From a virus (taxonomy: Duplodnaviria; Heunggongvirae; Uroviricota; Caudoviricetes), in IMG/VR virus record IMGVR_UViG_2565956729_000013, positions 1 through 31,698 of that record: a DNA stretch of 31,698 bases. One strand, written 5' to 3'. Under the pieces are notes generated by a model. That model saw nothing but the letters and a program-made list of their open reading frames with translations. It ran no database searches and was not told the DNA's origin. Shown here in pieces: positions 20,537 through 30,636 of the stretch (position 1 is its first letter; each line of letters opens with the position of its first letter). The position numbers and the translations under genes are program-made.

Positions 20537-20591
20537 AACCCGGAACGGGCGCACAAAGAATTTGCGCACCCGTTCCGGGTTTTCTTATTTA
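20537..20591 (+). terminator. rho-independent terminator after ogr
   Basis: Near-perfect 16-18 bp GC-rich stem (AACCCGGAACGGGCGCAC / GCGCACCCGTTCCGGGTT) followed by TTTTCTTATTT. Confidence 0.7.
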
Positions 20592-20944
20592 ATGGCAGAC
20601 AACTGATAATTTGTGTCTTCCTGCAGGCTGGTTAAAGAAATATTATCCAGTGCAGCCAGAATAACGTGCTGTGTATATAATCCGGAACATTTCATTGCCC
20701 GGACAATATCACCAACACTGTAATTTTCTTTTGTCGGGATATATCCACCACCCGGGCCGCGTGTGGCTTTTACCAGGCTACTTTCCCGTAAATATCTGAA
20801 TATTTGCTCCAGATATGACAGTGACACGGTTTCTTTGCTTAATTGCCGGAGCGAGATTGGCTTTCCGGTGTACTGTTTCACAAATTTAATCATTACCATA
20901 ACTGCAACTGATGCACGCTGGCTTCCGGAATTATCTTTCATCAT
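20585..20944 (-). CDS. Rrf2-family transcriptional regulator
   Basis: Signature ISLSYLEQIFRYLRESSLVKATRGPGGGY; ~119 aa from the MMKDNSG start; lacks the IscR-type Cys cluster; AT-rich DNA. Confidence 0.8.
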   Translation of the reverse strand: MMKDNSGSQRASVAVMVMIKFVKQYTGKPISLRQLSKETVSLSYLEQIFRYLRESSLVKATRGPGGGYIPTKENYSVGDIVRAMKCSGLYTQHVILAALDNISLTSLQEDTNYQLSAIK

Positions 20945-20955
20945 GATTACTTCCA

Positions 20956-21243
20956 TTAATGGCATAAATTGATGGAGCGGGTCAGTGAATAAAGAGGCAA
21001 TACATTCCATCCCTTAGAGCGCCAGCTGTCTGCAACATCTTTACTTCTTGTTATCGCCGGTATTCCAATAGGATTATTTGCGTGCATCCATGCCACTGGC
21101 TCTGCTTCCAGTGATGCAAGTGCGATTTCCAGTGCGATTAACATATTGTGATCGTCTTCATCAAGACCGAACGGGATGTCTTCGCGCCACGATTTAAACT
21201 CTGTGATTTTACGTTGTAACCATTCTTTGGTAATGGTGGACAT
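20956..21243 (-). CDS. hypothetical protein (95 aa)
   Basis: ATG at 21243 (MSTITKEWLQ...) with AGGAG RBS; track start at 21261 is GTG; AT-rich accessory region. Confidence 0.5.
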   Translation of the reverse strand: MSTITKEWLQRKITEFKSWREDIPFGLDEDDHNMLIALEIALASLEAEPVAWMHANNPIGIPAITRSKDVADSWRSKGWNVLPLYSLTRSINLCH

Positions 21244-21257
21244 AGTTACTCCTGTTT

Positions 21258-21572
21258 TCACTTCGGGAAAAACGCCTGAATATTCTTTTTCACCTGCTGC
21301 ATATGGGGGGCGTTGTCTGCTGCTGGTTGCGCCGGTTTTTCAGGCTGTACTGGTAGCGGTGGCATCCGTATTTCGTCTTCTGACCATTCTGCCAGCGAAT
21401 ACGCCAACGCGGGGGTGCGTTTTATAAGAGCCAGTCCGGCCAGAAAAGCCGCGCGTTGTGCGCGGCTGCGTTCGGAGGCTGGCAGGCTGTCGAGGTAACT
21501 GCACGCCTCCCGTTCGCTCTTGACGACGGCGGGCTTCAGATAGAAACTTATTCGTCTGGTTGGTGTCGTCAT
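21258..21572 (-). CDS. parR: ParR-like centromere-binding protein
   Basis: 104 aa; DSLPASERSRAQRAAFLAGLAL resembles recalled R1 ParR DSIPQGERSRLNRAALTAGLAL; AAGGAG RBS; directly downstream of parM. Confidence 0.7.
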   Translation of the reverse strand: MTTPTRRISFYLKPAVVKSEREACSYLDSLPASERSRAQRAAFLAGLALIKRTPALAYSLAEWSEDEIRMPPLPVQPEKPAQPAADNAPHMQQVKKNIQAFFPK

Positions 21573-21576
21573 TGAT

Positions 21577-22536
21577 TTACTCCTTGTCCATTGCGTACAG
21601 CCCATTAACCAGAGCAAACTGTGGCACCCCGTCCGCGATGAAAGTCGCATTAACTCCGCAGGCTTCGCGGATAGCGGGTGCCACAATCTTCGCTCCTCCA
21701 CCTACAACCATCACCCGCCCGTAACCCGAAAAACCCGCCAGCGCGCGGATCACGCGTTGTTTCAGTGTTTCCTCCTTTTCACGAATAACTGCCATCAGGC
21801 TGGCGTAATGTGCGTTATTGTGGATGTGCTGGCGCAGCCAGGCTTCATCGTGGCGATGTTCGATAATGGTATTAGCGATGTGGTGACTGGTACGCATACC
21901 GTTGGTGGCCATCACCGACAGCACGGCATCGGCCATCAGAGAAACGCCTACGTGTGGATCGCAAAACACCTGGCTGATACCTGCCAGTTGCCCCTGAACC
22001 TTTGCCACATCCAGCGTGGTTCCGCCCAAATCCACAATCAGCAGGGATTCAAACGGACTCATGTCAGCCAGCGCTTTAAAGCCAGCCGGAATGGATTCAG
22101 GCATAACCCGCACGTTACGGATAGTGAATGCCTCACCGTTCTGGTACTCCACCGGGCGCATAACGTTCGCTTTTTTGCGGTTGATGTTGGCCATGTCCGG
22201 CTGTGCGTTTGTGTCGAAATACTCGCTCAGTGGCAGGGTGACAACCACATCCACCTCCTGAGGCGTGATGCCTGATTTGACCAGCGCGTGATGAATGGCA
22301 ATGACATTCACATCGCTGTACTGGTATTGCGTGTCGGTCGTCTGGACAAAGCGATCGCTGACCGGATCAAAACCATAGCGCACGCCATCAAGCATGTAGT
22401 TCGCGGGCTGCGTGCCACCGAACGGCGCAGACCATTCCGACTTGAAGCTGTTCGGGCTGATGGCGTTGCGGCGTTCGCCGTTCTCAGTCCATGCCAGTTT
22501 GATGTTGGTGGAGCCGTCGTCGATACAAATTTTCAT
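21577..22536 (-). CDS. parM: ParM/StbA actin-like segregation ATPase
   Basis: 319 aa; motifs IDDGSTNIKLAW, YSDVNVIAIHHAL, VMPESIPAGF, LIVDLGGTTLD, GYGRVMVVGGGA match recalled plasmid R1 ParM along its full length. Confidence 0.85.
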   Translation of the reverse strand: MKICIDDGSTNIKLAWTENGERRNAISPNSFKSEWSAPFGGTQPANYMLDGVRYGFDPVSDRFVQTTDTQYQYSDVNVIAIHHALVKSGITPQEVDVVVTLPLSEYFDTNAQPDMANINRKKANVMRPVEYQNGEAFTIRNVRVMPESIPAGFKALADMSPFESLLIVDLGGTTLDVAKVQGQLAGISQVFCDPHVGVSLMADAVLSVMATNGMRTSHHIANTIIEHRHDEAWLRQHIHNNAHYASLMAVIREKEETLKQRVIRALAGFSGYGRVMVVGGGAKIVAPAIREACGVNATFIADGVPQFALVNGLYAMDKE

Positions 22537-25441: not shown

Positions 25442-25807
25442 TTACTTCGTCATGCCATTCAGGGTGTCGCGGCAGACTGTAGCCAGCCGCTGAATTTCCA
25501 GCACGGTGTCTTCTGTGTCGGCATGGCGATGTGTGATGCGGATGCTGTCGGCAATCACATCGACGATTGCAGAGGATGGGCGCTGGTAAATGCCAATAAC
25601 GGACGGGGTGCCACCTTCAATGCGGTAAAGCCTGTAATTTCCCTCGTGGCTGTCAATCATGTAGCGACCGTCAATAACAATCTTTCCGTCAGCGAGCTGC
25701 GGTACAGGCAGGGATTTCAGGTACATGTCATAACGTTCACGCACGCGAACGGCAAGATCACGCTCTGTGTTGAGCAGGTATTCAAGAAAGTCGTTGGCGA
25801 GAATCAT
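25442..25807 (-). CDS. hypothetical protein (121 aa)
   Basis: AGAGGA RBS; stop 7 nt before the A start. Confidence 0.55.
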   Translation of the reverse strand: MILANDFLEYLLNTERDLAVRVRERYDMYLKSLPVPQLADGKIVIDGRYMIDSHEGNYRLYRIEGGTPSVIGIYQRPSSAIVDVIADSIRITHRHADTEDTVLEIQRLATVCRDTLNGMTK

Positions 25808-25879
25808 TGCGGCAATCCTCTGGTTACTGATGTGCGAAGGCCTCCCGCCGCAAGGTGCAGGAAGGGCCCGGAACAGGAA

Positions 25880-26110
25880 TTAATGGAGTTTGTTTTGCTG
25901 CTGGATGAGATCCTGAAGAGACAGGAGGTCTTCCGCCAGATAGCTGAATACAGCGGCGCAGTAGTCGGCTGAAATAGTGCTGTTGAGTCTGTGCAATGTG
26001 TTGGATTGCATGATAAAGGCGATGTGTGCGGCGCGGGTGAGTCTGCGATCGATTTCAGTCTGGATGTGACGACGCTCCGCGATAGCGCGGTGCTGTTTGC
26101 GGTTTGCCAT
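25880..26110 (-). CDS. hypothetical protein (76 aa)
   Basis: AAGAGG RBS upstream of ATG at 26110; first gene after a 368-bp non-coding gap. Confidence 0.5.
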   Translation of the reverse strand: MANRKQHRAIAERRHIQTEIDRRLTRAAHIAFIMQSNTLHRLNSTISADYCAAVFSYLAEDLLSLQDLIQQQNKLH

Positions 26111-26447
26111 GGTGTGGCCTCTTTGGTTGTAAGTTTTGAAAACTCACCATCCAGAGGTGGAAAACTCGGGGTGGTGAGACGTACAGGGTTTCCACAACCG
26201 GCAACTACAGAACCCGGCCCGACCGAAGTCGGCCCCATACGCCCCACCATAATTCGTGTGCGAAAAAGACGTGGCGATACGGTACGCACAAAAAAACCGC
26301 TGGCGCGGTTGTGCGCTTTGGTTGTCAGCGGGGTGGAAATCCCGGCACCCGTTTTATGAGGTGCAGCGGAAATGTAACCTGACTGATTGCGGCATGGCAA
26401 GTGGTTTTTTTGTGAGAACGGCATACTAAAAAAATCCTGATACTGCT

Positions 26448-27514: not shown

Positions 27515-27814
27515 TTACTGGTTAAGGAAAAAATCAAAAACGTTATTGATGCGTTGTAATAACTCGCGCTGTATTGCTTCCGGTGTTTCCGGTTCGCCAG
27601 GTGAACCCAGCGTTGCGCAGAAATCAGCGATTTCATGATGGAGCGTCAGGCGAATGGCTGGAGCCATGGTTCTGGCGTGCTCCAGCTCATCCAGCAGTGC
27701 CAGCACAGCAGACGGCGAGAGCATTGCGCGAAACGCCAGTAATTTTTGATGCGTTGCCATTCGTTGCAGGCCAGTCGCCAGTTCGCGTAGCTTCTGGTGG
27801 TTGATGGTGCTCAT
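27515..27814 (-). CDS. hypothetical protein (99 aa)
   Basis: Start overlaps upstream stop (ATGA); part of the coupled early cassette. Confidence 0.55.
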   Translation of the reverse strand: MSTINHQKLRELATGLQRMATHQKLLAFRAMLSPSAVLALLDELEHARTMAPAIRLTLHHEIADFCATLGSPGEPETPEAIQRELLQRINNVFDFFLNQ

Positions 27815-28056
27815 GCTCTGGCTTCCTTCAGTAGCTGGTTAAACATGCGGGTGAGTGGGTTGCTGCACCCGAACGGCATCGGGTTTACCTGGTAAGAGAA
27901 CCGACCGCCTGTTTTGCGTTCTTCTCTGATGACTAAGCCGTCGCGCCAGAGTCGGCGTAACTCCGCATTAATGGTTGTGGTTGGGGTATTCAGTGCTGCG
28001 GCGATTTCTCCACCGCTACAACCCGGATTGGCGGCGATGTAGTCCAGAATGGTCAT
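27811..28056 (-). CDS. winged-helix DNA-binding protein (putative regulator)
   Basis: 81 aa; wHTH-like segment GEIAAALNTPTTTINAELRRLWRDGLV; ATGA coupling to the upstream gene. Confidence 0.55.
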   Translation of the reverse strand: MTILDYIAANPGCSGGEIAAALNTPTTTINAELRRLWRDGLVIREERKTGGRFSYQVNPMPFGCSNPLTRMFNQLLKEARA

Positions 28057-28256
28057 CTGCGTGACTCCTGTACCTGTCGGATAAGGTTCACCCGCGCCAC
28101 ATTCGTGGCGCAGAAGTAAGTGCCGTCAGTGAGATAGATGTGATGTGCATCTTTTTCTGAACGGTGTTTGTCGATAGTGGTAATCAGGCGTTCGTCGACC
28201 TCGTATTCGCGCCCTCTGGAGGTAAAGCGAACGACGGGAAAATGCTTAATTGCCAT
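28053..28256 (-). CDS. hypothetical protein (67 aa)
   Basis: ATG at 28256 (MAIKHFPVV...) with AAGAGAG RBS; track start at 28274 is TTG. Confidence 0.45.
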   Translation of the reverse strand: MAIKHFPVVRFTSRGREYEVDERLITTIDKHRSEKDAHHIYLTDGTYFCATNVARVNLIRQVQESRR

Positions 28257-28279
28257 TACGCTCTCTTTGTCCAATAGCC

Positions 28280-28690
28280 CTATGCGTTAAATACGGCACG
28301 TTGCGTGCCATCAATGAATACGGCCTGAGTGCGTTCTATCAGGCGGAGATTTGTCAGAACTTCTGACTCTCTTACGGGGTAAGGGGTAATCAGGTATTTG
28401 TCCTGCAATTCGGCGATAATGATGTATTGCTGTAGCTCCGAGCCAATAATATGAATAAGGTGTCCAATGTCAGATAAATTCAGTCTGGTGGTTGGTTGTG
28501 TTTTGAGAACCGTTAGTTCAGCATCCTGTTTTTCGATGATTTCGGCTGCTTCGGCGGTTATTCTTGTTATCATCATGGCCGTGGTGGCAGGCCCAATCAT
28601 TCCTGCATTTGTTGCATCCTGAATGGCTCTGTTTGCGGTCTCCGATATATTTTTTAGCGCAGTTACAATGCCTTTTTCTTTTGCGTTCAT
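28280..28690 (-). CDS. hypothetical protein (136 aa)
   Basis: GGAG RBS; preceded by ~95-bp AT-rich gap that may hold an internal promoter. Confidence 0.5.
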   Translation of the reverse strand: MNAKEKGIVTALKNISETANRAIQDATNAGMIGPATTAMMITRITAEAAEIIEKQDAELTVLKTQPTTRLNLSDIGHLIHIIGSELQQYIIIAELQDKYLITPYPVRESEVLTNLRLIERTQAVFIDGTQRAVFNA

Positions 28691-28783
28691 TTTTGTATCT
28701 CCGTTATTTACGTGTGCGAATACCTCCGCTAATGCGGATGGTTTTCACGTTTTCTTATTTAATCTGGTGTTTTGTTTGTGCTG

Positions 28784-28897
28784 TTATTCGTCAGAGAAAA
28801 AACGTTCAATCTTTTTCACTGAATGAATAATTCGCATAATCCCAATGGCGCAGGCCACCGAAATAATCAGAACAATCCATGACATAAATATACTCAT
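28784..28897 (-). CDS. small hydrophobic peptide (37 aa), putative
   Basis: Manually translated: MSIFMSWIVLIISVACAIGIMRIIHSVKKIERFFSDE; ATG overlaps upstream stop (ATGA); below track size cut-off. Confidence 0.35.
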   Translation of the reverse strand: MSIFMSWIVLIISVACAIGIMRIIHSVKKIERFFSDE

Positions 28898-29136
28898 GCG
28901 ATATTCCCCAGCTTATACGGTTCAATATGTTCTCCGCATTCTGCGGCGCAGACGAGTTCGGAAAGTTCGTTAAGTGCATCCAGATCATCAGCGTAAAAAG
29001 CCACGTCATACAGACTCCGGATTGCCCTGGTCAATGAGTCACGGGCTGCACGTTCAGCATGAGCGCCTGATGCACTTAAGCGAAAATAAAAACGCTCAAG
29101 TGCTTTGTTAATGAGAGTTTTATATTCTTTGCCCAT
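28894..29136 (-). CDS. hypothetical protein (80 aa)
   Basis: ORF in the early operon; 13-bp palindrome TTTTCCCGGAAAA just upstream. Confidence 0.5.
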   Translation of the reverse strand: MGKEYKTLINKALERFYFRLSASGAHAERAARDSLTRAIRSLYDVAFYADDLDALNELSELVCAAECGEHIEPYKLGNIA

Positions 29137-29156
29137 TGCATTTTCCCGGAAAACAA

Positions 29157-29411
29157 TTAAACAAAATCTCTTAATGGTTTACCTGATTCAATGCGCTCAA
29201 TTGCATCGTTAATGGCCATGTATGCGGCGTGATCACCTGCATAGCGTGCGCATTCCTGTAGTGACTTTAATCCGCTGATAGTATCGCTTTTTGCTTCCGA
29301 TAAAGGTTTCACCGTATTTAATGCATCACGGGCATTATTATCTATGAGTCGGTGTATGATAAGAGTGTAGGCCGAGGCTATCTCTACCATGTTTTTTGTC
29401 GTTGTTGCCAT
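29157..29411 (-). CDS. hypothetical protein (84 aa)
   Basis: Tightly packed early-operon ORF (3-nt gap to upstream gene). Confidence 0.5.
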   Translation of the reverse strand: MATTTKNMVEIASAYTLIIHRLIDNNARDALNTVKPLSEAKSDTISGLKSLQECARYAGDHAAYMAINDAIERIESGKPLRDFV

Positions 29412-29414
29412 TGG

Positions 29415-29765
29415 TTAATTCCCCCGTGGATGCTGAAAACTACGTCCTGCAATTAAGCGGTCAACCGTGCGTAGCGCTTCGTACAATGTAAAATCCTGTC
29501 CGAACTGATTGTCGCCGTTGCTCAGTGCAAAAATGCGGTTTCCGGTAAACGGATTGCGTGGGCATTTGTGGACCGCGATTCCAGCTTTCTCAATCAGCCA
29601 GGTGTGCTCGCCGATTTGTTTTACGGGGTAGCCATCCGGCGTTGCGTGTGTTTCGCTCAGGCTGTAGCGAGAGTTGCTGCGTGATGCACTGGTAGCGAAA
29701 CGGTTAGCATGGCGTTCTGCACCGTTGCGGAAGCGCTGCTGTGGAGAATTACGCCGCTCCTTCAT
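29415..29765 (-). CDS. hypothetical protein (116 aa)
   Basis: First ORF downstream of cox in the early operon. Confidence 0.5.
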   Translation of the reverse strand: MKERRNSPQQRFRNGAERHANRFATSASRSNSRYSLSETHATPDGYPVKQIGEHTWLIEKAGIAVHKCPRNPFTGNRIFALSNGDNQFGQDFTLYEALRTVDRLIAGRSFQHPRGN

Positions 29766-29802: not shown

Positions 29803-30228
29803 TTATGCTGCTTTACCGCTGATGTTTCTGTTTCGTCTGCCACTTGTTGGCTTAAACAAAAACAGACGGTTTTCCCAGTCGTGCCATTCCTGAGGTGCGT
29901 TTTCGATGAGGCGATCGCATGCTTCATCCCACGCTTTTCTGTTGATGTAGAGTTCAGCGTTTCCGCCTGGCTTGAGAGGGTCCGCCATATACACCGCAGG
30001 TAGCTTTCCTGCTTTTGCCATGCTTACGATGGCATCAACGGTCTTTCCGATATACATCGCAAATCCTTCTTTTGACAGGAGATGCGAGGGATTTTCTGAA
30101 AGTCGAATTTCTTCACGTTCACGTGCTTTGCGTCCTGTTTTTTGATGCTCACCTTCTGGCATTTCTGACAGGTGATCGCATCGTGTTCCGCAAAGTGACT
30201 CAGGCGCGTTTTGAGTGCTTTCTTGCAT
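29803..30228 (-). CDS. cox: Cox-like excisionase / early-promoter repressor
   Basis: GFAMYIGKTVDAIVSMAKAGKLPAVYMADP resembles recalled P2 Cox EFAKLIGKSTGAVRRMIDKGKLPVIDMTDP; ATG at 30228 has GGAGG RBS (alternative ATG at 30162); divergent from C. Confidence 0.7.
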   Translation of the reverse strand: MQESTQNAPESLCGTRCDHLSEMPEGEHQKTGRKAREREEIRLSENPSHLLSKEGFAMYIGKTVDAIVSMAKAGKLPAVYMADPLKPGGNAELYINRKAWDEACDRLIENAPQEWHDWENRLFLFKPTSGRRNRNISGKAA

Positions 30229-30342
30229 CTGATATCCTCCGCTATTGGTGCTTTTTCTAATTGGCACTAGTTGGAACCACTTAGAACATTTGTTTGCTGT
30301 TCATATGTGGTGTTAATCTACACATATGTAGGAGTTTGTCAA
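30229..30342. promoter_or_regulatory. immunity switch region (divergent early and repressor promoters, operator repeats)
   Basis: Three direct repeats at 10-bp phasing (TTGGCAC 30261, TTGGAAC 30271, TTAGAAC 30281) and inverted repeat CATATGTG-N11-CACATATG at 30302..30328; promoter hexamers not assigned. Confidence 0.55.
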
Positions 30343-30636
30343 ATGGACATTCCTCAAAAAATTCGCGTCATGCGTAAATCTGAAGATCTCACTCAGCGGG
30401 AATTCGCTGATATGATTGGGATTTCTTATTCTGCTCTGACCAGTTATGAGTATGGTCGTAACCTTCCTGGCCTTGAGATCACTATCAAGCTTTTCAAGCA
30501 CCCAAGATTTTCTAAATATCGCGACTGGTTTTTGTTTGATGAAGTTGAACCTAAGGCCGGGCAGGTTGTACCGGCTCTCGCACACATTGGGCAAAACGAA
30601 GCGGAATTATCCCGCTCCGGCAAGAAAACTGGTTAA
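30343..30636 (+). CDS. immunity repressor (P2 C-like)
   Basis: 97 aa; RVMRKSEDLTQREFADMIGISYSALTSYEYGR and C-terminal PALAHIGQNEAELSRSGKKTG resemble recalled P2 C; GGAG RBS. Confidence 0.8.
   Translation: MDIPQKIRVMRKSEDLTQREFADMIGISYSALTSYEYGRNLPGLEITIKLFKHPRFSKYRDWFLFDEVEPKAGQVVPALAHIGQNEAELSRSGKKTG

Follow-up and report, generated by a model that had tools for sequence, protein, structure and literature searches.

The window analysed here is the complete 31,698-nt stretch (positions 1 to 31,698) of IMG/VR virus record IMGVR_UViG_2565956729_000013, assigned to the Caudoviricetes, and our subject is a run of small open reading frames (ORFs) lying between cox and a cassette with an SPFH gene. 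An original prediction, made from the sequence letters and without database searches, described at least eight such ORFs in a partly AT-rich region. Indeed, exactly eight ORFs, all on the minus strand, fill positions 27515-29765, and GC content falls to 0.38-0.44 over ~28600-29350, compared with 0.50-0.56 on both flanks. Gene order and sequence similarity identify the locus as the Pe early operon of a P88-like prophage of the P2 family in E. coli. Escherichia phage P88 (Xuanwuvirus, Peduoviridae) shares 93.6% DNA identity with 74% of a 3-kb stretch around the ORF block, the top full-length match to this stretch is E. coli RM8082 (94.7%), and the annotations of both show the gene order of the window. 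A matching P88-type region was present in 1402 of 5426 complete E. coli genomes. The features of the block are listed in order from cox, with the ORFs called o1 to o8.

29415..29765, minus strand: o1, DUF4761 protein, 116 aa; backbone gene; full-length Pfam match of 213.2 bits (threshold 27)
29157..29411, minus strand: o2, 84-aa orphan in the slot after DUF4761
28894..29136, minus strand: o3, DUF4754 protein, 80 aa; backbone gene; full-length Pfam match of 181.8 bits (threshold 27)
28784..28897, minus strand: o4, single-pass membrane peptide of 37 aa; ATGA overlap of its start with the o3 stop
28691..28783, minus strand: conserved intercistronic spacer, ending at the cassette insertion point after ...GGTATTCGCACACG
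28716..28748, minus strand: stem-loop of the early mRNA; the cargo insertion point follows ~25 nt downstream
28280..28690, minus strand: o5, 136-aa cargo gene, phrog_9338, in the variable slot after the spacer
28053..28256, minus strand: o6, 67-aa backbone protein, phrog_3459, 153.7 bits; stop overlaps the o7 start
27811..28056, minus strand: o7, 81-aa stand-alone winged helix (MarR-type winged helix-turn-helix, wHTH); MarR_2 35.0 bits, HTH_24 32.6 bits
27515..27814, minus strand: o8, 99-aa Ead/Ea22-like protein, phrog_4144, 201.7 bits; last of the eight

The eight ORFs are true protein-coding genes and not chance ORFs, since the ratio of nonsynonymous to synonymous substitution rates (dN/dS) against orthologues in related prophages was below 1 for all of them: 0.23 for o1, 0.45 for o2, 0.07 for o3, 0.35 for o4, 0.46 for o5, 0.09 for o6, 0.23 for o7 and 0.19 for o8. 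Every one has homologues in related prophages, and Shine-Dalgarno sites accompany the tightly packed or overlapping frames. The junction distances from cox onward are 37, 3, 20, -4, 93, 23, -4 and -4 nt, with three junctions formed by ATGA overlaps, and a further 11 nt separate o8 from the next gene, a 67-aa membrane gene of the SPFH cassette. Six of the eight ORFs matched a PHROG, three of these also scoring above a Pfam gathering score; o2 and o4 had no match in either collection.

Backbone genes, exchangeable slots and their products

A comparison of gene presence and absence across related prophages, which the original prediction had proposed as a check, resolved the block into six backbone genes and two exchangeable ones. 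From ~180 related loci that were fetched, 112 distinct regions spanning DUF4761 to gene A entered the comparison. The consensus order was DUF4761, slot A, DUF4754, 37-aa transmembrane peptide, spacer, slot B and 67-aa protein, followed by (winged helix), (Ead-like), (SPFH cassette or other cargo), derepression gene, 121-aa gene and A. By this comparison, the P88 backbone comprises DUF4761, DUF4754, the 37-aa membrane peptide, the 67-aa protein, the winged helix and the Ead/Ea22-like protein, with o2 and o5 being the exchangeable members. The six backbone products (o1, o3, o4, o6, o7 and o8) are 85-99% identical to the P88 proteins.

In nearly all relatives, slot A contains a 92-95-aa protein of the P88 gp05 type. 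The o2 gene found there in the window is rare, occurring in 8 of 5426 complete E. coli genomes; among the distinct regions it was intact in 8 and truncated in 2. RM8082 and two viral contigs retain a truncated form of 47 aa, which the NCBI Prokaryotic Genome Annotation Pipeline (PGAP) leaves unannotated. An o2 of 68% identity occupies the same slot in a second P2-like lineage, which is integrated next to prpC. Slot B was empty in ~4 of every 10 distinct regions and carried the o5 family in 52 of the 112 (452 of 5426 genomes); otherwise it held unrelated small proteins or, once, a multi-gene insert. Besides the empty state, there were at least six types of cargo, namely the o5 family, a protein of 87-105 aa unrelated to it, proteins of 94 aa and 105 aa, one of 111 aa at locus L105, and the multi-gene insert, which at its single locus combines a 162-aa protein, a 193-aa protein that looks DnaQ-like and a ~330-aa protein. 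The exact gene combination of the window recurred in one other contig only (L083).

Further cargo between the spacer and the derepression gene was seen at L100 (6234-6473), L106 (1562-2143 onward, counted from the DUF4761 start) and L105 (2483-3502), all in region coordinates. Such cargo elsewhere includes a ParE-like toxin-family protein, a 193-aa protein that is DnaQ-like by the look of its N-terminus alone and a ~330-aa protein tentatively labelled a methyltransferase.

The structural model of o1 has low confidence over residues 1-32, which form a conserved basic N-terminus, and continues as a small beta-sheet and helix domain. The orphan o2 had no match in Pfam, PHROGs or NCBIfam; its homologues form 17 clusters among 5.8 billion proteins, and all those with a named source come from E. 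coli. Profile comparison (hhalign) aligned o2 with DUF4754 over 49 columns (probability 71%, E 3.6e-5), which makes a distant paralogy between o2 and its DUF4754 neighbour o3 probable. This neighbour is the most constrained of the eight ORFs and was found in 112 of the 112 regions. The o4 peptide, annotated as 'membrane protein' in P88 and present in 107 of the 112 regions, reaches a Kyte-Doolittle maximum of 2.58 (19-residue window) over residues 3-21.

The o5 family comprises 72 clusters, all of them 'hypothetical' proteins from Enterobacteriaceae. The AlphaFold2 model of o5 (predicted local distance difference test score, pLDDT, 86) predicts two antiparallel helices that form a hairpin (residues 3-28 and 32-64) and are joined by a linker to a small beta domain at the C-terminus; the variable residues 14-45 map to the tip of the hairpin. 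The alleles of o5 are mosaics. Nonsynonymous and synonymous polymorphism (pN and pS) in the tip region were 0.24 and 0.38, and this ratio of 0.64 with a high pS indicates old alleles shuffled by recombination, with no measurable positive selection. Positive selection on the tip was thus not found, pN/pS being nowhere above 1. Nor was any co-variation of o5 alleles with immunity type seen: near-identical o5 genes accompany different int/C/cox types. The Escherichia albertii homologues (P0059-P0061) carry 1-3 extra tandem 7-residue units (LNLSDTG / LNLPDTR) in the linker between hairpin and beta domain.

For o6, the ORF as listed (28053-28274) gives 73 aa from a TTG; its true start is almost certainly the ATG at 28256 (67 aa), judging by the ribosome-binding site (RBS) and by agreement with P88 gp08 and phrog_3459. 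The family is tiny, with 16 representatives among 1.84 billion proteins. A single long match of 1016 aa looks spurious, with no family above threshold, and no support emerged for o6 being a paralogue of the 92-aa protein common in slot A. The profile phrog_19053 (246 positions) matches o6 at 82-135 and o7 at 162-243, a weak hint that the two may be fused in some phages and that the overlapping o6 and o7 may act together.

The o7 scores exceed the gathering scores of 27 (MarR_2) and 21.9 (HTH_24); o7 also matched phrog_1687 ('MarR family') and, weakly, small wHTH proteins in the PDB such as YhgG/FeoC, and was found in 89 of the 112 regions. A full MarR protein has ~140-150 aa, with N- and C-terminal dimerisation helices around the wHTH, whereas o7, at 81 aa, has the wHTH part only, aligning to profile positions 9-60 of 61 and to positions 69-149 of 162 in phrog_1687. 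The sole Pfam match of o8 was Ead_Ea22 (PF13935), at 23.2 bits below the gathering score of 27 and restricted to residues 21-48; PGAP names its P88 homologue 'ead/Ea22-like'.

The original prediction had recognised no helicase loader or other replication accessory among these ORFs, and the searches agree with it: none could be so assigned by Pfam, PHROGs, NCBIfam, PADLOC, PDB sequence searches or tblastn against the P2 and 186 early regions. The outcome that the original prediction had named as its refutation, with all ORFs matching conserved replication accessory proteins of this phage group, thus did not arise. In the tblastn comparison with the P2 and 186 early regions (E <= 0.01), which covered orf78, B and orf80-83 of P2 and cII, fil, dhr and CP81-84 of 186, none of the eight ORFs matched, and only int, C, cox and A did. 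Given this lack of similarity to P2 and 186 early proteins, P88-type phages have an accessory set of their own.

The original prediction had noted that small early genes of temperate phages often serve host takeover or anti-defence. These ORFs may have such a role, but searches directed at defence were negative. No PADLOC defence model was satisfied, the only signals being marginal wHTH-type matches for o7 and one for o3 (E 0.0075), and no anti-defence family (Ocr, Ard, Acr, Tad, Gad, Acb etc.) was found in Pfam, a dedicated anti-defence profile library not having been searched. Structure searches returned nothing specific and matched no solved structure of known function, and PDB sequence searches with o1, o3, o7 and o8 yielded only small winged-helix proteins, for o7. 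We found no mention of DUF4761 or DUF4754 in the searchable literature, and the P88 paper and the papers on P2-like hotspots are silent on these genes.

The intercistronic spacer and its stem-loop

The original prediction had placed an AT-rich gap of ~95 bp at 28691..28783 and had taken it as a sign of an internal promoter. The gap is real, with 93 nt and a GC content of 38.7%, but it is not AT-richer than o4 (35.1%) and barely more so than o2 (42.0%). The promoter found no support. On the minus strand of 28691-28783 there were no sigma-70 -35/-10 hexamers with 16-18 nt spacing, and promoter-like sites in the 4.4-kb region numbered 6, against 5.1 expected from shuffles. A spacer of ~75 nt follows the 37-aa gene in every relative, whether slot B is filled or empty, and the cassette inserts immediately after ...GGTATTCGCACACG, carrying its own RBS. 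The spacer contained no Rfam family, and P2-type cox boxes (TTAAAKNCA) were rejected as a feature, with no cluster at Pe/Pc or in the spacer. The gap is a conserved intercistronic spacer and gene-insertion site that shows no sign of a promoter.

What is conserved in the spacer is an RNA stem-loop. Its inner stem, UCCGC-AUUA-GCGGA (28725-28738), is extended in the window by two outer helices, and RNAfold gave -19 kcal/mol for the sense RNA of the window (z = -4.4, with no shuffle equal). Counts for the stem are based on 32 distinct sequences drawn from 177 loci. Standard pairing was kept at the five inner pairs in ~99% of cases (2 unpaired of 160), and at two of these pairs both bases have changed, from C-G to U-A, in 2 distinct sequences at one and 6 at the other. 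Furthermore, G.U and U.G single variants, together with an outer-pair U.G in 20 of the 32 sequences, pair in the sense strand only. The covariation score was reached by 0 of 500 shuffles, and the core of the stem is kept in the distant prpC-linked lineage, in which the flanking proteins are only 65-79% identical.

After the hairpin, the sense strand continues with GGUAUUCGCAC; lacking a U-tract, the stem-loop is not a canonical terminator. The terminator scan found no terminator-like site on the sense strand of 27515-29765 and reported the hairpin for the opposite strand only, where the wobble pairs are mismatches. A role of TCCGC-N4-GCGGA as a repeated operator was rejected because the motif occurs once in the window. 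By analogy with other early operons, the most likely role of the stem-loop is that of a boundary for processing, stability or attenuation of the early mRNA. The GUAUU right after the stem fits the preference of RNase E, which is a lead and not a test.

Genomic setting of the block

The block is embedded in a recognisable early region, the main elements of which are as follows.

30667 to window end, plus strand: integrase, confirmed
30343-30636, plus strand: C repressor, HTH_3
30315..30342, minus strand: Pe-like early promoter TTGACA-16-TAGATT, 10/12 match; abuts the C gene start
29803..30228, minus strand: cox, excisionase/repressor family, 141 aa from ATG; Pfam Phage_Cox 96.8 bits
22613-25435, minus strand: replication initiator A, Phage_GPA, 940 aa, further along the strand

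The genes between cox and A occupy one strand, divergent from C and int and headed by a Pe-type promoter, as expected for a P88-like early operon. The Pe-like site was the sole strong sense-strand promoter match upstream of the block in the sigma-70 scan, and the Pe/C layout parallels the annotated arrangement of P2. The C repressor shares just 71% identity with P88 C; Cox, the first gene product of the early operon, is 100% identical to that of P88. PGAP annotates a 426-nt Cox gene in relatives. Reading from an upstream GTG (29803-30267) would give a Cox of 154 aa, with the Phage_Cox domain at residues 53-133 and hence an N-terminal extension of ~40-50 aa; P2 Cox has 91 aa.

Two strong Rfam matches lie on the minus strand at 26167-26254 and 26290-26364, within the 368-nt gap between the SPFH gene and a 76-aa derepression gene. 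They correspond to C4 antisense RNA (RF01695, 79.3 bits, gathering score 45) and isrK (RF01394, 64.3 bits, gathering score 50), which points to a small-RNA module like that of P1 immI or Gifsy-1 isrK directly upstream of the derepression (antirepressor-like) gene. A 206-aa ORF overlapping this region (25804-26424) is probably spurious. Downstream of A, in the gpA-to-portal hotspot, the minus strand at 20585-22536 encodes a ParM/StbA actin-like segregation protein of 319 aa, a Plasmid_stab_B protein and an Rrf2-type regulator, a cargo of the plasmid-partition type that has been reported in some P2-like phages. Finally, a 226-kb contig labelled Vagococcus sp. WN89Y (NZ_JBQPOM010000071.1, our L103) carries a P88-type early region with a 96% identical DUF4754 protein. 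It was the sole return of the species-level genome scan for DUF4754 and most likely reflects Enterobacteriaceae contamination of a Gram-positive assembly.

The early operon compared with known phages and its interpretation

The closest known system is the early operon of P88 (NC_026014, gp03-gp12), with which the window shares gene order and orientation: int, C, cox, DUF4761, a variable gene, DUF4754, 37-aa membrane protein, spacer, 67-aa protein, winged helix and Ead/Ea22-like protein, and onward a 67-aa membrane protein, SPFH lipoprotein, derepression protein, 121-aa protein and replication endonuclease. The shared genes have 85-100% protein identity. The two differ at the slots: P88 has the common 92-aa gp05 in slot A, where the window has the unrelated 84-aa o2, and the position after the spacer is empty in P88 and filled by the 136-aa o5 in the window.

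The relation to P2 and 186 is one of layout. The early operon of P2 reads cox-orf78-B, a putative terminator and orf80-83-A, and that of 186 reads apl-cII-fil-dhr, tR1 and CP81-84-A. Like the window, both have a divergent repressor and integrase, Cox or Apl as the first gene, a run of small genes split by one non-coding gap and then the rolling-circle initiator A. The position of the P88-type spacer is analogous to that of the annotated intrinsic terminators of P2 (after B, putative) and 186 (tR1, after dhr). However, the gaps of P2 and 186 have true U-tracts, whereas the stem-loop of the window has none.

For the products, fil and dhr of 186, as annotated in its record, offer precedents for small early proteins that modulate the host. 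A second point of comparison is lambda Ea22, an early, non-essential and pro-lysogenic protein of modular build, in which a coiled coil links a short N-domain to a C-terminal domain that can be swapped (PMC7093339, PMC10834534). With the Ead/Ea22 family (lambda Ea22 / P22 Ead), o8 has in common a short N-terminal motif of 28 residues, scoring below the gathering score. The layout of o5 is analogous to that of Ea22, with a helical coiled region followed by a small C-terminal domain (alpha/beta or beta) and with mosaic evolution, but the two have no sequence match.

We consider it probable, with considerable room for doubt, that the block is a Pe-driven operon in which a backbone is combined with two cassettes, and in which the spacer is a stem-loop plus an insertion point without a promoter signal. 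Upon loss of the C repressor, transcription from Pe would run through cox and all eight small genes and continue into the SPFH cassette, the C4/isrK RNA with the derepression module, and gene A. The genes would be translated by close or overlapping coupling. The slot after DUF4761 holds either the common 92-95-aa gene or, as here, the rare 84-aa gene, a probable DUF4754 paralogue, and the slot after the spacer holds, in this phage, the gene for the 136-aa protein with the predicted helical hairpin. The stem-loop would separate a promoter-proximal module (cox to o4) from a distal one (slot to gene A). We infer that the products are small binding modules and not enzymes, among them a membrane peptide, a winged helix that would bind DNA, and adaptors of coiled-coil or hairpin type. 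Most likely, by analogy with fil and dhr of 186 and with lambda Ea22, they tune host physiology or the decision between lysis, lysogeny and replication.

The analysis establishes that the genes are real, how the operon is laid out, its mosaic make-up and the conservation of the stem-loop, while co-transcription, the role of the stem-loop and every protein function are inferred. Several points tell against this picture. Because no product has an experimentally characterised homologue, the notion of host-modulating binding modules draws on size, fold class and analogy; moreover, o3 and o6 are so constrained and universal that they may have an essential role, for example in replication. The promoter scan covered sigma-70 consensus sites, and a weak or activator-dependent promoter in the gap could have escaped it. 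The stem-loop has no U-tract, unlike the P2 and 186 terminators, and its role is a guess. Its outer helices pair in ~44-97% of sequences, depending on the pair, and one of eight pairs is invariant. The loci are closely related (88% mean column identity), the covariation counts rest on few lineages, and the covariation tool itself cautions that related sequences may beat shuffles without any structure. Given this close kinship, the covariation is moderate evidence and not proof.

One different explanation, which we hold to be improbable, is that four backbone products (DUF4761, DUF4754, the 67-aa protein and the winged helix) serve in replication as accessory proteins, in place of P2 B or as helpers of A at the origin. 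It would account for their place upstream of A in the same operon, where P2 has B and orf80-83, and for the universal presence and low dN/dS (0.07 and 0.09) of DUF4754 and the 67-aa protein; the early region of the window has no B homologue, and origin binding is conceivable for a winged helix. Yet none of these proteins resembles B, DnaC-type loaders, primases or single-stranded DNA-binding proteins in Pfam, NCBIfam, PHROGs or the PDB, the early-region tblastn was empty, and the winged helix is missing from 23 of the 112 related regions. Nor is a loader an obligate component, since phage 186, too, is not known to have a B homologue and makes use of host functions. Still less probable is an internal promoter in the gap that would make o5 and the downstream genes a separate transcription unit. 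The scan gave no sense-strand -35/-10 match at threshold and a regional number of sites equal to the shuffle expectation, and reading by eye revealed no hexamer that combines A at position 2 with T at position 6 and has a usable spacing. The spacer is kept regardless of the cassette, and its conserved nucleotides form an RNA stem with sense-only wobble pairs. In favour of a promoter, the block has no other long non-coding gap (93 nt, 61% A+T), and the gene after it has its own RBS.

The exchangeable o5, and possibly o2, could instead be counter-defence or inter-phage competition factors, with slot B as a small diversity hotspot in the early operon. We regard this as unlikely, although the variety of cargo in slot B, the two variable cassette positions, the mosaic o5 alleles with their hypervariable hairpin tip and the immediate-early expression that would follow all speak for it, and slot B is not among the described P2 hotspots, which lie elsewhere. 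Against it stand the lack of any anti-defence family in Pfam, of any PADLOC defence model and of any structural match, the tip polymorphism, which indicates old shuffled alleles and not ongoing positive selection, and the emptiness of slot B in about four of ten relatives. A reading of o4 as a type-I-toxin-like membrane peptide under an antisense RNA, with the hairpin and the T-rich tract of the plus strand as the antisense terminator, deserves almost no credence. In such an antisense RNA the wobbles (inner G.U/U.G and the outer U.G in 20 of 32) would be mismatches, and the plus-strand hairpin lies upstream, not downstream, of the weak plus-strand promoter-like site inside o4 (28813-28840) that might drive it. 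Promoter-like sites occur at chance frequency here, no Rfam antisense family was found at this place, and o4 is translationally coupled to o3 as in an ordinary operon. What fits the toxin reading is that o4 is a 37-aa single-pass hydrophobic peptide and that the plus-strand hairpin is followed by a T-rich run that the terminator scan caught.

The exchange point at slot B invites comparison with the described hotspots of P2-like phages, which are old/tin between gpA and the portal gene, Z/fun, and tail-to-CI (PMC9122126; bioRxiv 10.1101/2024.10.15.618418). Like these, slot B has a fixed position between conserved anchors, presence or absence of an insert, and alternative cargo. Unlike them, it lies inside the early operon, between the 37-aa and 67-aa genes, and usually contains one small gene and not a 1-5-kb defence system; its cargo had no match in PADLOC. 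That the spacer and the position after the stem-loop constitute a fourth P2-like diversity hotspot, carrying early counter-defence or competition cargo regulated via the stem-loop, is a doubtful proposition that we put forward with little confidence. If true, the cargo (the o5 family, unrelated small proteins, a putative exonuclease and methyltransferase pair) would be delivered at the start of infection or induction, and the stem-loop would set its expression relative to the cox-proximal genes.

Taken together, the block is an ordinary, mosaic member of the catalogued P88-type early operon. Alone it matters little, consisting of catalogued hypothetical genes that are found in about a quarter of complete E. 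coli genomes. As the P88-type set is without detectable homology to P2 and 186, what is known of B, fil, dhr and cII is not transferable to these phages. DUF4754 and the 67-aa protein, being under very high constraint, are the best candidates for an essential function, and the two exchange points, one of them beside the stem-loop, are a place to look for early phage-host or phage-phage interaction factors.

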